A stretch of 64,000 bases of DNA from Eledone cirrhosa (taxonomy: Eukaryota). Both the position numbers and the translations under genes were made by a program. Within the stretch, counting starts at the first letter, position 1; every line of letters starts with the position of its first letter. Of the stretch, positions 2,989 to 63,811 are shown one piece after another. The stretch lies in the NCBI GenBank assembly GCA_964016885.1, contig OZ024747.1, positions 53,258,001-53,322,000 on the forward strand. Reading direction: 5' to 3'. Under the pieces are notes generated by a model, which did no database searches, was not told the DNA's origin, and was given only the letters and a program-made list of their open reading frames with translations.

Positions 2989-3185
2989 TAGGAACCAGTA
3001 AGACCCCGACAGCTGAGCTCAAGCCGTTTCGACGGCTAATTCTGGACAGTCCAGAATTAGCCGTCGAAACGGCTTGAGCTCAGCTGTCGGGGTCTTACTG
3101 GTTCCTATTACCCACTCTACTACCTCAAGTATTGAGTACTTTGGTGCGTTATGGTCCACCTGGTTCCTTACCACATTTCCTTCGT
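2989..3185 (+). mobile_element. Hairpin+tail element (HHR 3'-half palindrome), copy 1
   Basis: Perfect 59-bp arms centred on 3048, 78-nt tail, embedded in (TA)n. Confidence 0.9.
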
Positions 3186-3938
3186 TATATATATATATAT
3201 ATATATATATATATATATATACATATATATATATATATATATATATATATATATATATATATATATATATACATATATATATATACATATATATATATAT
3301 ATATATATATATATATATATATATACATATATATATATATATATATACACACATATATATATATATATATATATACATATATATACCCGTCCATGTATAT
3401 ATACGTACATACATGCATGTGTGGATATATATATGTACATATATGTACGTATGCATATATATATACATATATACATGTATGTGTGCATATATATATAACA
3501 CATATTGTGAGAGAGAGAAAGAGAGAGATAAACAGAGAGATGAAAATGTAAATACAGACAGGGGGGGGGGAGGAAGAATGGAAGCCCAGAGAGAGGGGGA
3601 GGAGGTGATGAAATAACCATAGTTTAAATTATTTCCAGTAATGGTATCAACATTGTTATAACTTAAATGGAAATCAAGTAGTAATAGAAATAGTACTGGT
3701 AGTAGTAATAGTGGTGGTAGTAGTAATAACAGGAGTAGTGGTAGTCGTTAGCAGTAGTAGCAGCAGTAGTTTTCCCAAAGTTGTTCTTGTAGAACAAGTC
3801 TTCCGCATATATATATATATATATATATATATATATATATATATATATATATATATATATATATGTATATATATATATATATTATATATATATATCAATG
3901 ATATTAATAAATGGAAACTATATTTATAAAACGATATT

Positions 3939-3999
3939 TATTCTATTATATATATTTCAAGGGTACCAAAACTTTGGTACGCTCTCATCAGATAAAATA
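3939..3999 (-). ncRNA. Minimal type-I hammerhead ribozyme
   Basis: Inverted copy of 4106-4166. Confidence 0.8.
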
Positions 4000-4105
4000 C
4001 AAAGTTTTATTTTATAAATATTGACATACCCAGGAATGAGAACTTAACGGTCCAAAGTTTCAAGTTTCATTCCTGGGTATGTCAATATTTATAAAACAAG
4101 CTTTG

Positions 4106-4166
4106 TATTTTATCTGATGAGAGCGTACCAAAGTTTTGGTACCCTTGAAATATATATAATAGAATA
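4106..4166 (+). ncRNA. Minimal type-I hammerhead ribozyme
   Basis: TATTTTAT-CTGATGA-GAGCGTACCAAAG/TTTTGGTACCCTT-GAAA-TATATA-TA-ATAGAATA. Confidence 0.85.
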
Positions 4167-4564
4167 AATATGGTTTTATAAATATAGTTTCCATTTATTA
4201 ATATCAATGATATTATATTCCAGAAAATCTGTCGAGTGCTTCGAATCGGTTATAAATATATATATTTGTTGAATTACCAACAAATTCAATATCCCTTTGC
4301 TTATATATATATATATATATATATATGTAGATAAATCTACCAAGAGTTTACGGTAGTGTCCAATCCGTATGAAGAACTCAATGTAATCCGGATATCATGG
4401 AAAGAAGAGATGCAATGAAAAATCACTTTCGGTGAAAGATAAACGGAATACAGAGTCATTGTTTTATTCATTATTTTTTTAATATTTTATATATATATAT
4501 ATATATATATATATATATATATATATATATATATATGTATATATATATATATATATATATATAT

Positions 4565-5040
4565 GAGAGTATTAAAGTTTGCTTGAAGCATTGTGGAATA
4601 ATAAGATATATTTCTTTAGGTCGTTTTGGAAGCCTCAACAATGCAGATGGGTAATACTCCGGGTAACAAGATCCGGTGGTGAAGAGAAAGATTTAAGTGA
4701 ATGTAAATTGAGATGTATAGTGTGTAGAAGAGCGTAGGAAAGATATTCAAAACAACGAACAGCGGAGGACACGTTTCGCACCTTTCCGAAAGACAAACTC
4801 CCCCCCCCCCCGGAAAAACCCCCAGTTGATGGATGTGAATCCGAAATATATAGGGACAATTATATCTTTCCCAAGGTAACTCTATCTCGTGTTATTATTA
4901 TTTTTTTTACGCTCTTTCCTACGTTCTTCTACACACTATACATCTCAATCTACATTCACTTACATCTCACCACCGGATCTTGTTACCCGGAGAATTACCC
5001 ATCTGCATTGTTGAGGCTTCCAAAACGTCCTAAAGAAATA
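4565..5040 (-). repeat. Inverted-repeat element with one-sided tail in (TA)n
   Basis: Arms ~4608-4743 and ~4913-5040; tail 4565-4607 resembles 25707-25731. Confidence 0.7.
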
Positions 5041-5289
5041 TATATATATATATATATATAATATATGTATATATATATATATATATGTATGTTTGTATAT
5101 ATATACCCATATACATATATATATAAATATAAATATATATATATGTATGTTTGTATGTATATATATATATATATATATATATATATATATATATATATAT
5201 ATATATATATATATATATATATATATATATATAAATGAAAGGTATAGAAAACATTGTAGCAAAAAAAAAAAAAAAATATATATATATAT

Positions 5290-5378
5290 GTAGGAGGTGA
5301 GTTTTATTGTAGCACAATAAAGCAATGCAAATATCGGATAAGTAGCACTCAACAGTTTATAGGACTGGAGTATAAGTA
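5290..5378 (-). mobile_element. Inverted 3' tail segment abutting the truncated PLE
   Basis: Reverse complement closely matches 46431-46519, which also abuts a truncated copy of the same PLE family. Confidence 0.75.
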
Positions 5379-60380: not shown

Positions 60381-60654
60381 CAATCAAATCAATAAAACCT
60401 AATTAACCATCCAGGTAACAAAGTTTTCTTTTCCCTTCTACCTTGCATCAGTTCTTACTTGTCTGCCCCACCCTCGCACCACCATTGCATATGTAACTAA
60501 CCCTTTCACCCTCTTGGTACCTTACACTATATCTTTCAGCTCTTTGTGTTCAGATGTGAAATCCTGCTGTGTCCTAGGTTATAGACATAAGCCGTTACCT
60601 GGTTTAATATCATCCATTGATCCTAAGGTTCCTTTTAGCAGGGCATACTTTATT

Positions 60655-60810
60655 GCAGTGCATTGGCAGTCATTAGGACATCGGATAGAATGCTTTATGG
60701 TATTCGTTTCAGTTCTCTGCACTCTGAGTTCAAATCCCGCCAAGGTCAACTTAGCCTTTCATCCTTTTGAGTTCGATAAAAAAAGAATACCAGTCTAGTA
60801 CTGGGGTTGA
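60655..60810 (+). mobile_element. tRNA-derived SINE
   Basis: GAGTTCAAATCCCGCC and GCCTTTCATCC core. Confidence 0.75.
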
Positions 60811-61184
60811 TTCTTCCTCTATATCTCTTTCTCATTTCCTCTCGCTCATTTTCTATCTTTCTCTGGAAAAAATCTGCTGGACTCGAGCCTGGAGAATGAT
60901 GGGCTCCACCAGGCTTAAAATGCCCCTAAGAAACGCTGTATGTCACTACGGCATCTTTATAACTATCAAGGGTTACGGGACCATACATACTTTGTTGTGA
61001 GTATTCACTCGAGGTCTGCAGTTTGAAGATACCTTGCTTCATTCTTCACAGTGTGTGACAAAGCTGGCTGTTTTAATTAACAAGAGTTATTTTCAACACG
61101 CTGATGCATATGTGTATATATGTGTGTGTAGATTGTACACACAAGTGATGTGAATGTTAGACGCTGTTTTCTCCTTCCTTCTTC

Positions 61185-61575
61185 ACCTATCTCTAGTGTG
61201 TGACATCACCACCCCTTCCTTCCTCAGTTATCTCTAGGGCATGACGTCACCACCCCTTCCTTCCTCAGTTATCTCTAGTGCGTGACGTCATCACCCCTTC
61301 CTTCCACAACCATGTCTAGTGTGTGACATCATCACCCCTTCTTTCACAACCATGTCTAGTGTGTGACGTCATCACCCCTTCTATCACAGCCATATCTTCA
61401 ATCATCTCTAGAGCGTGATGTCATCAACCCTTCCTTCCCCAGTCATCTCTACTGCATGGCCTCATCAGCCTTTCCTTCCCCAGTCATCTCTACTGCATGG
61501 CCTCATCAGCCCTTCCTTCCTCAGTCTTCTCTAATGCATGATCTCATCACCCCTTCCTTCCTTACTCATCTCTGG
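61185..61575. repeat. ~41-bp degenerate minisatellite
   Basis: Recurrent TCTCTAGTGYGTGACRTCATCACCCCTTCCTTCC. Confidence 0.85.
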
Positions 61576-62693
61576 TGACAGAAAGACAGATGGTCAGACG
61601 GAAGTCACTCACATTTATATATAAAAGGCACAGCTCATTATTTCCAACAGAGTAGGCTGAAGCAATGTGATATAATGTCTTTCAGGTAACCAAACACTTG
61701 GCCTTACAATTGTGAACCAAACACTCTAACCACCAAACCACATATTCTCAAGTGTTAACACCAGCTTAAATATTATTCAATAGCTTGTATTTAAGACAAA
61801 AAAAAAGGGAGTTTCTTTTGGTAGGTATTCTGTAAATTCTGTATGTTAGCAGAACAAAGAGCATTGTGGAAGATATCTCTAAAATGTAGAATGTAACTCT
61901 ATATTAGTGTTGTTAAAGTCTAGATGATGGTGAAGTGTCTTTGTTTCTTTGGAAGAGAGAGAAAAGTTCTTAACTTTAGAGGAAGAATTGAACAAAATTT
62001 AAAACAAGACATGGTCATACATACAAACATATATATATATGTGTGTATATATAAATACATTCATACAAACAAACATACATATATAAAAAATACATGCATA
62101 GATAATATATATATATATATATATATATATATATATATATGGATGGTGTTTATATATATATATATACCTTGCAATCAAAAGGTTGTGAGTTCAATTCTCA
62201 GACCGGGTGATATGTTGTTTCTAAAGCAAGACACTATATTTCACATTGCTCCAGTTTATGAGATGATAGGGACAGGAGTCCCTATCATTCCACTGCAAAC
62301 TGGTCGTGGAGGTGCCATGGCAAAAAAGCACCCAGCACTCACTGTAAAGTGGACATGTAGGCGCCACGGAATAAAAGCACCCAGCACTCACTGTAAATGA
62401 GGTTGGTGTTAGGAAGGGCATCCAGCTGTAGAAATCAAACCAGAATCAGTTCCCATCCCACCCTTACAAGCAGGGAAAAGCGGACATAAAAATGATGATG
62501 ATATATATATTTATTAAAATAACAGATTAAAGTTTAAGCAAAGAATCACTGCTTTCACCCTTAACAGGATCTTCTGAAACTAAAATATTTGCTCTACGGT
62601 TCTTATATATTTGATATATATTTATCTTTATCGAGCCCTCTTTGGATTTTAGTCTTCAAATTTATTATTATTATTATTGTGGATTGGCAGTAA

Positions 62694-62878
62694 GGGCCGT
62701 GGATTGGCAGTATCGGTAGAGAGTCGGACGCCATGCTTTCCAGCATAGTTACGTCCCTTTACGGTCAGAGTTCAAATCCCGTCGAGGTTAACTTTGCCTT
62801 TCATCCTTACGGGGTCGATAAAATAAAGTACCAGTAATGTACTGGGTAATTGCTGGCCTTGTGCCAAAAGTAGAAACA
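62694..62878 (+). mobile_element. tRNA-derived SINE, full length
   Basis: Same family as 14883-15072. Confidence 0.9.
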
Positions 62879-63565
62879 CTTATTATTACTATATAAGCGG
62901 ACATAAAATGATGAATGAATATATATATATATGTGTGTGTGTGTTCTACAGGATGTAATGGTGAGGGATATTGTTAATATCGTGTGGGTGGGGTGAGTGG
63001 GTGAAGGAGAGATTGTTAGGGGGGTAAGTGTTGAATAAAGAGTAGGGGTAGCTGGTTAGTGTATGAGGAGAGGGGATGTAGTGATGTAGGTATGTGCTTG
63101 ATAGAAAGGGGCTGGTTATGGTGGAGAGATAGGAAAAGTTGGGTAGTGAGTCAACAGCTACAAAACTAAAATATATTCTTTACAGATTGAACAACTTTAT
63201 ATGTATTAAGTATTTATTTAAACTTGGACCTTTTAGTTGTTGAGCCAAGGAAATCTGGCCCTCAACCTACCTGAGGAATTAGTAAGTGTACTTGTTTAAT
63301 GAGTCAACCTACCCAGTAATGGTTAACATGGAAACAGGCATTAAATGATGATTATTCAATATCTGGGACTTTAAGACAAAGAAATATATACCCTCTTCCT
63401 GCTATATCAAGTGTTAACCTAATATATCCCTTCCATATACTGTACTGATTGTGTTGTTATTTCTGTTTACCTTTTACATACATATACACCTCAAATGAGA
63501 CAACTTGTCTATCCCATGCTAGCATGGAAAATGGATGTTAAACAATGATGATGAAGATGATGATA

Positions 63566-63811
63566 ACGAAGGAGGTGTGGTAAGGAACCAGATGGACCAT
63601 AACGCACCAGAGTACTCAATATTTAGGGTAGGAGAGTGGGTAATAAGAAAATGTTTAACCCCGACGGCAGAGCTCAAGGTGTTTCAACGGCTATTTCCGG
63701 ACTAAATAGTCTAGAAATAGTCCAGAAATAGTCCAGAAATAGTCCAGAAATAGTCCAGAAATACCCGTCGAAACGGCTTCAGCTCTGCCGTCGGGGTTAA
63801 ACATTTTCCTA
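63566..63811 (-). mobile_element. Hairpin+tail element, copy 9, with reiterated 11-mer at the centre
   Basis: Homologous; about five AGAAATAGTCC units at 63706-63763. Confidence 0.88.

Follow-up and report, generated by a model that had tools for sequence, protein, structure and literature searches.

The 64,000-nucleotide stretch of the Eledone cirrhosa genome analysed here (contig OZ024747.1, positions 53,258,001 to 53,322,000, hereafter the window) carries nine copies of a short hairpin repeat (Table 1), which a sequence check of the window found at the starts given in an initial annotation made from the letters alone. Every copy is an inverted repeat with arms of approximately 59 bp and a tail of approximately 78 nt on one side only. 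The annotation had placed nearly all of them in (TA)n; this is the case on both sides of seven copies, the exceptions being copy 8 and the tail end of copy 9. It had also recognised, correctly, that the tail-side arm corresponds to the 3' half of a hammerhead ribozyme (HHR) and that CUGANGA is missing from all nine copies, and the catalytic 5' half of the ribozyme is absent from the short copies. As the annotation had also proposed, the repeat derives from a Penelope-like element (PLE), since the hairpins, rather than forming an element of their own, correspond to the initial 138 nt of a 3.6-kb PLE encoding a reverse transcriptase (RT) and a GIY-YIG endonuclease. Judging from their structure, the hairpins are probably run-off products of twin target-primed reverse transcription that starts from a defined RNA 5' end of this element.

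Table 1. Hairpin copies in the window, with copy 5 dissected as an example (+1, putative transcription start)
Feature	Position	Strand	Remarks
Copy 1	2989..3185	+	A1y, the youngest subfamily; +1 A at 3048
Copy 2	11620..11823	-	A3 subfamily; an untemplated G precedes +1
Copy 3	25378..25570	-	A2 subfamily
Copy 4	27698..27875	-	T-type; mirror arm with a deletion
Copy 5, tail-less arm	33090..33147	-	antisense, from PLE start site 1 (TTCC|TA) toward the RNA 5' end; shares its outer end with the tail-less arms seen in long insertions
Copy 5, head-to-head junction	33148..33149	.	sequence varies between copies
Copy 5, sense arm	33150..33210	+	begins at the +1 A (inferred transcription start, HHR loop II); layout identical to the parent; order: stem II 3' strand, GAAA (33168-33171), stem III (GAGCTC loop), GUC, stem I 3' strand
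Copy 5, GUC cut	after 33190	+	predicted from the layout of the parent
Copy 5, start site 1	33210	+	end of the sense arm
Copy 5, tail	33211..33287	+	5' part of the PLE unit, between both start sites; in tandem parents it continues into the 5' untranslated region and open reading frame
Copy 6	34731..34934	+	A1 subfamily
Copy 7	44764..44960	-	T/A intermediate subfamily
Copy 8	51920..52110	+	old and diverged, 72% identical; no (TA)n on the left side
Copy 9	63566..63811	-	T-type; centre (junction) is a templated 11-mer repeated 5 times

The initial annotation had called for an HHR-complete parent linked to a PLE open reading frame (ORF), and such a parent exists, with a core other than the one expected. 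The predicted pattern (CCCTGANGANACGGNTA) has no match in the genome, and among the 47 matches of a canonical-core search (CTGANGA..TCGAAACGGCT) the parent was found in none of the 30 viewed, because its core reads TTGATAA and a CTGANGA search misses it. An older, longer relative adjoining one hairpin copy (L115; L-numbers designate loci fetched from the genome) led to 30 loci with the TTGATAA core, and the corresponding pattern, CCTTGATAA...TAGCCGTCGAAAC, matches 662 young long arms, with no match in the control. At L257 the parent forms a tandem unit of 3,605 bp in which the tail reads directly into the 5' untranslated region (UTR) and the ORF, while L418 is a whole copy, from the +1 A through the tail, preceded by a 35-bp inverted arm and containing a 559-amino-acid RT-endonuclease stretch with the motifs YRDD (RT) and AYIGLT (C-terminal GIY-YIG). 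Pseudo-long terminal repeats (pLTRs) and partial tandems were found at L257, L254, L419 and L420. A pattern joining tail and 5' UTR has 68 genome matches; upstream sequence (3' UTR or the HHR 5' half) precedes 16 of the 30 loci fetched, and five more represent a single 273-bp array.

The parent shows the attributes of a PLE: a single RT/GIY-YIG ORF, pLTRs and partial tandems, an inverted 5'-truncated copy with a one-sided tail, and a hammerhead in the pLTR. Atlas neighbours of its ORF carried HTH_animal, RVT_1 and GIY-YIG (0.95-0.98); Pfam scans of the parent ORFs gave no match, and a GIY-YIG family search (10,597 candidates, 150 scored and 30 fetched) returned other PLE families, the parent being absent among the matches listed. 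The motifs RLRWRT (RWR), HSDKTG, CNCPDRSSC, CNLCSEE and ACKH are those of the Hydra clade, the target is (TA)n as in that clade, and by inspection there is no CCHH motif in the endonuclease, as the CxxC before AYIG is absent. By these motifs the parent classifies as a Hydra-like PLE, although it departs from the tendency of the clade, not a strict criterion, towards elements below 3 kb with a canonical HHR (3,605-bp unit, U3-A8 core).

The hammerhead of the parent is complete, with the three stems, 3-8 pair, GAAA and NUH of a type I ribozyme, and has a U3-A8 core (TTGATAA). In 111 long arms, which were picked by anchor motifs so that conservation of the core and of the stem I 3' strand is partly built in, pairing of the stems is at about 90%: 18 of 21 positions pair in 96-108 arms, the exceptions including II.7 (44) and III.5 (69); U3-A8 is present in 97 arms, TTGATAA in 81 and GTC in 92. 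Two positions of stem II changed on both sides between old and young subfamilies (II.2, GC in 72 and AT in 27 arms; II.8, TA in 72 and AT in 26). Plain minimum-free-energy folding recovered the hammerhead in one of the four examples shown, and an Rfam scan of window positions 33000-35000 yielded 38 matches, nearly all to generic hairpin models far below their cut-offs and none to a hammerhead. The pLTR of the parent has the same layout as the tail-side arm of the hairpins, and the short element holds only the 3' half of the ribozyme because it begins inside loop II.

Other PLE sequences were encountered in the genome. An abundant GIY-YIG family (L081-L110), presumably Neptune-like, has CxxC ahead of YIG and a TTGATAA...GAAA hammerhead-like motif in its 3' UTR. 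The loci L256 (3793-5148), L260 (~548-850), L262 (~8800-9100) and L049 (~200-700) hold further ORF fragments of Hydra-like type, diverged in sequence, along with a PLE endonuclease terminus that has a canonical hammerhead. At L295, more than 20 tandem copies of a 27-bp repeat correspond to the sequence immediately upstream of the ribozyme core. The window itself also contains minisatellites at 1-527 (44 bp), 16364-19525 (23 bp, 140 copies), 40148-41407 (75 bp) and 51099-51527 (56 bp), and the output of a direct-repeat scan was dominated by microsatellites.

Short and long insertions share one plan: two arms lie head to head, one reaching to the end of the tail (site 2), the other stopping 78 nt short of it (site 1). 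Among 141 parsed short copies, 134 have one tail, two have two and five have none, some of the latter being decayed tails. The long insertions (46 rows, 22 distinct after removal of duplicates) comprise 21 pairs of a tailed and a tail-less arm and one tandem. We infer that each target strand primes at one site.

We propose that the enzyme of the element probably cleaves the two strands of a (TA)n tract and reverse-transcribes RNA from each of them. The pLTR promoter would start a capped RNA at the A in loop II, so that the 5' pLTR, lacking the catalytic 5' half of the ribozyme in the transcript, would be unable to cut itself. As no more than 61 and 138 nt separate the two RT start sites from the RNA start, these sites would be present on the 5' end of every transcript, and on the 3' end only of read-through transcripts. 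Priming at the 5' sites would then give cDNAs of 61 and 138 nt running off at the cap, like retroviral strong-stop DNA, whose ends would be trimmed and joined by end joining, with a fresh junction for each insertion. Priming at the 3' sites would give rarer, long, 5'-truncated inverted insertions, and RNA cut by a complete ribozyme would give an ultra-short class. The source RNA may be the 5' pLTR of full transcripts, terminal pLTRs firing into their flanks or short arrays, the product being the same from each.

The putative RNA 5' end appears as a wall in loop II. Of 220 short arms, belonging to 110 copies parsed so that centres of 70 nt were permitted (13 of the 141 copies, chosen by centre motif, and 18 without assignable subfamily were dropped), none extends upstream past position -4 relative to AGTCC in this loop. 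Stem II had been taken as the fold or annealing point; the arms stop instead in loop II, at what is likely the RNA start. Where an arm ends exactly at the A, the base inserted before it is G in 15 of 22 cases (p = 0.0009 against 1/3), and RTs copy the cap as an extra G, as seen in work on L1. Folding of the first 160 nt of the putative RNA revealed nothing special (z = 0.12). The context of the start is TCAGTC or TTAGTC in every subfamily seen, which we take to resemble the arthropod initiator. Promoters of PLEs sit within the pLTR (PMC2377424; PMC3846280; extracts of these and of the other papers cited by accession were consulted).

The full-length copy L418 begins at this same A, and four copies that continue into the body start at or within 7 nt of it (L388, L392, L398 and L411); others start at or near the ribozyme cut site (L393 and L399), and three elsewhere or in a complex manner. 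Because body-containing copies begin at or near +1, RNA starting there appears to run on into the element. We also noticed that in L388, L392, L393, L398, L399 and L409 the sequence extends from +1 (or the cut site) to 230-360 nt and is followed by a second +1 arm, forming template-jump partial tandems. Several of the body-continuing loci show a jump of this kind, from the 5' end of an RNA to a second RNA, a step by which partial tandems would arise.

The strongest competitor, to which we assign a low probability, retains twin priming and regards the wall as a place in the 3' pLTR where the RT is blocked or the RNA is processed. In its favour, the putative start is read from DNA, the arm ends scatter between -7 and +4, and the site reads like a YAG splice acceptor. 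Splicing was ruled out, since templated bases upstream of the AG are kept in the arms. A block would be expected at the base of stem II, whereas the stop comes after the RT has traversed the stem II 3' strand. Neither the untemplated G nor the full-length and template-jump copies that start at the wall and run into the body agree with it, as a block in the 3' pLTR would not set the start of full-length copies.

Insertions also end where the ribozyme would cut. An ultra-short hairpin pattern has 1,349 matches in the genome and none in the control, and in the first 56 copies listed 33 of 112 arm ends fall at position 0 or +1 of the cut, against 10 in the next bin. Exactly at the GUC cut are 24 of them, and nine lie at +1 relative to it, mostly in perfect CCCC/GGGG joins. 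Many ultra-short copies belong to the A1 or A2 subfamily, and body-containing copies starting at the cut site exist as well (L260, which is near-full-length, and L399). These insertions indicate indirectly that the ribozyme may cleave in vivo.

In the 3.0-Gb genome, a pattern of two inner arms has 14,637 matches, a lower bound as it demands 26 exact bases, and its reversed control has none, a difference far in excess of chance; the window holds more copies than the genome average, given that 20 random 10-kb stretches contained two full hairpins and three partial copies. Exact-pattern counts make the short product at least 20-fold more numerous than long copies. The subfamilies named among short copies are A0, A1, A1y, A2, A3, T and a T/A intermediate, and a long relative exists for each of those tested (A0, A1, A1y, A2 and T). 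The arms found with the 662-match pattern are all of A0 or T type, and the long A1/A2 arms carry a 3' UTR and ORF of their own. The array mentioned above (L413-L417; G000:C3:214146638-214147756) repeats in tandem a 273-bp unit made of start site, arm, tail and 5' UTR, without the ribozyme core, and is a possible source of short RNA.

The variability of the central junction, noted in the initial annotation, is pronounced: 13 copies of the youngest subfamily, picked independently of their centres, have 12 distinct junctions, while arms and tail are identical in 11 of them. The hairpin is formed anew at each insertion, as had been suggested. Junction variety also bears on a second alternative, namely a self-propagating short non-autonomous element whose masters are copied whole and whose junctions diversify later by cleavage and repair of the hairpin tip. 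Its appeal lies in the 99.6% subfamily concordance, the very high ratio of short to long copies in A1/A2 and the existence of the 273-bp array. On the other hand, the junctions already differ among identical young copies, long relatives accompany every short subfamily tested (very rarely for A1/A2), ends at the cut site, for which a whole ribozyme is required, are found in A1/A2 copies, and the same two outer ends recur in long insertions with unequal arms. We find this alternative rather improbable, and a short unit-length source RNA is in itself compatible with the twin-priming explanation. Of the two possibilities first offered, a non-autonomous element or a stereotyped abortive product, the latter fits better.

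The comparison of arms within and between copies, by distances and marker counts, came out as anticipated, with 1.8 of 37 sites differing within a copy and 4.9 of 37 between copies (61 of 66 copies, the five with indels being dropped). The five variants described as private to a copy are instead subfamily markers, each found in both arms of other copies (23, 4, 17, 1 and 2 of 136). Changes that are really private, in 120 copies, were common to both arms once (L151) and confined to a single arm 23 times. The supposition that the second arm is copied from the first did not survive, as arms hold sequence that the partner lacks and may belong to different subfamilies or families. The longer arm is the tail-less one in 11 of the 22 long insertions (one of them, L249, is rearranged) and the tailed one in seven, while in three the two are about equal; in the first 11, both arms carry sequence absent from the partner. 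In five short copies, a tail-only arm is fused to one that begins at AGTCC. Copies of mixed A1/A2 type make up 32 of 7,808 (0.4%); among the 30 viewed, a third marker identifies three as whole-arm chimeras (L366, L371 and L385), several are mosaics (L362, L365 and L383) and the majority could not be diagnosed; in three further copies, family A is joined to another hairpin family, B, at both 5' ends. The two arms are made INDEPENDENTLY, and the mirror arm is not a fold-back copy, because the tail-less arm is often the longer one and arms of mixed subfamily or family exist. As the two cDNAs nearly always belong to the same subfamily, their source is probably a single RNA, or else RNAs transcribed from a single locus.

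A fold-back origin, in which the first cDNA serves as template for the mirror arm or this arm is made by self-priming on an antisense template (PMC3846280), would explain the near-perfect concordance of arms, the templated, snap-back-like junction inserts and the private variant shared by both arms of L151. Besides the unequal, tail-only and chimeric arms, it is opposed by the 57 of 85 junctions that lack microhomology (24 blunt, 33 with inserts) and by both arms ending at landmarks of the sense RNA (cut site and +1), and it offers no reason for copying to end at site 1. It is largely refuted, unless later asymmetric deletion is very common, and we regard it as quite unlikely. A miniature inverted-repeat transposable element (MITE) or other TA-targeting DNA transposon, which would also be short, abundant and inverted with TA flanks, has a negligible chance, given repeats that are not terminal (the tail lies on one side), a variable centre and a sequence that is the pLTR of an RT element.

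Several points weigh against the run-off explanation, or limit it. The samples of loci were selected by pattern, chiefly from chromosome C1, and the putative transcription start, the cap and self-cleavage have been deduced from DNA sequence. The 7,808 short A1/A2 copies stand against only about 11 long arms (among 22 matches), and short sources, such as terminal pLTRs and arrays like L413-L417, may supply most of the RNA. Mixing of A1 and A2 is some 100-fold below random pairing, as estimated from 50 listed copies, and none of the 30 viewed among 197 copies discordant at a single A/T site was a chimera. Gene conversion could explain some mixed mosaics (L362, L365 and L383), later deletion at palindrome centres could have shortened one arm or diversified junctions, and the inserted Gs could in part be templated CTG snap-back products. 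By eye, no clear match to a downstream promoter element was seen.

Similar hairpins occur outside family A, the family described above. Family B (L005 1704-2292; L031, L049, L058, L150, L269 and L296) has the same (TA)n-arm-centre-arm-tail plan, with arms of approximately 245 bp and a complete canonical hammerhead (CTGAAGA); ten of 11 anchor matches start at or near CAGTT, and it is probably another run-off family. In family C (L047, L110, L133, L144 and L154), the hairpins have ACAGTT at their centre and the canonical hammerhead is complete; longer forms carrying upstream sequence exist. In L047, L041, L032 and L052, family A sense arms are joined either with a hairpin from a different family or with a captured palindrome, which suggests template jumps at the RNA 5' end.

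We further hypothesize, with even chances of being right, that every Penelope-type insertion consists of two cDNAs, one per strand and each from its own site; that the location of these sites just behind the promoter yields mostly strong-stop hairpins; that a start within the ribozyme disarms the 5' copy; and that cleavage of the 3' copy severs the ORF from the start sites, throttling productive jumps. If true, this would explain the inverted pLTR, junction palindrome, tail and partial tandems of PLEs in general, and many 'MITE-like' hairpin families (B and C here) would be by-products of PLEs, recording start and cleavage positions at the DNA level. Repeat libraries may list such PLE products as MITEs.

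Among better-known processes, the hairpins, as interpreted here, recall L1 twin priming and retroviral strong-stop DNA in that both target strands prime, the copy runs off at a capped 5' end and a cap-derived extra G is added. In L1 twin priming, however, two different parts of one RNA are copied, whereas here the same part would be copied twice, and minus-strand strong-stop DNA is an intermediate, whereas the hairpins are integrated. Three of the features, namely the inverted copy, the tail and the U3-A8 core, have precedents among PLEs. Our literature search, which did not extend to Dfam, Repbase or the majority of subscription papers, brought up no description of a predominant run-off product of fixed length, a ribozyme-internal start site or insertions ending at the cut site.

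The Hydra-clade PLEs (Craig et al. 2021, PMC8557442) share with the parent the C-terminal GIY-YIG, the RW[KR], DKT, CxCX5C, CxxC and CxH motifs, the (TA)n target, an HHR near the 3' end, partial tandems and an inverted 5'-truncated copy. They are generally below 3 kb with a tail of 30-40, compared with a 3.6-kb unit and a 78-nt tail here, and the Hydra HHRs of File S2 are C3-G8, unlike the U3-A8 core and 31-nt loop II found here (the ribozymes, rather than full sequences, were compared); no mention of a short run-off class was found in the extracts of that paper. The U3-A8 core, long helix II, short helix I, palindromic loop III and opposite-strand pairs are paralleled in the Cercyon PLE hammerheads of Schistosoma (PMC4209133), from which our element differs in its stem III of 4-5 bp and in the putative RNA start in loop II, which would split the ribozyme. 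Non-LTR retrozymes (bioRxiv 10.64898/2026.07.22.740005) are also short, non-coding and derived from a PLE pLTR, but they are tandem units with a whole HHR, whereas the hairpins are single inverted pairs with half an HHR.

For Poseidon PAc from Anolis, both target strands were cut and extended in vitro, and two internal RT start sites bound the tail (Frangieh et al. 2024, PMC11167929). The two start sites defining a tail and the AT-rich target are as in our element; the start site of PAc showed no strand bias, the joining step was left open and zero reads were reported at the HHR cut site, whereas in our element each strand appears to use one of the sites, judging by 134 of 141 short and 21 of 22 long insertions, and the cut site is among the points where insertions end. 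The Penelope elements of Adineta vaga and Drosophila virilis (PMC3846280; PMC2377424) likewise have a head-to-head inverted pLTR, a junction palindrome, an optional tail and a promoter with an initiator within the pLTR. In the extracts consulted, the origin of the head-to-head tailed ends of PLEs and hammerhead cutting in vivo are stated as open (PMC8557442; PMC3846280; PMC11167929), and the tens of thousands of insertion records available here bear on both questions. PLE palindromes were attributed to self-priming on an antisense template (PMC3846280), whereas the present records, as far as sequence can tell, favour two sense-templated cDNAs and would place the RNA 5' end within the ribozyme.

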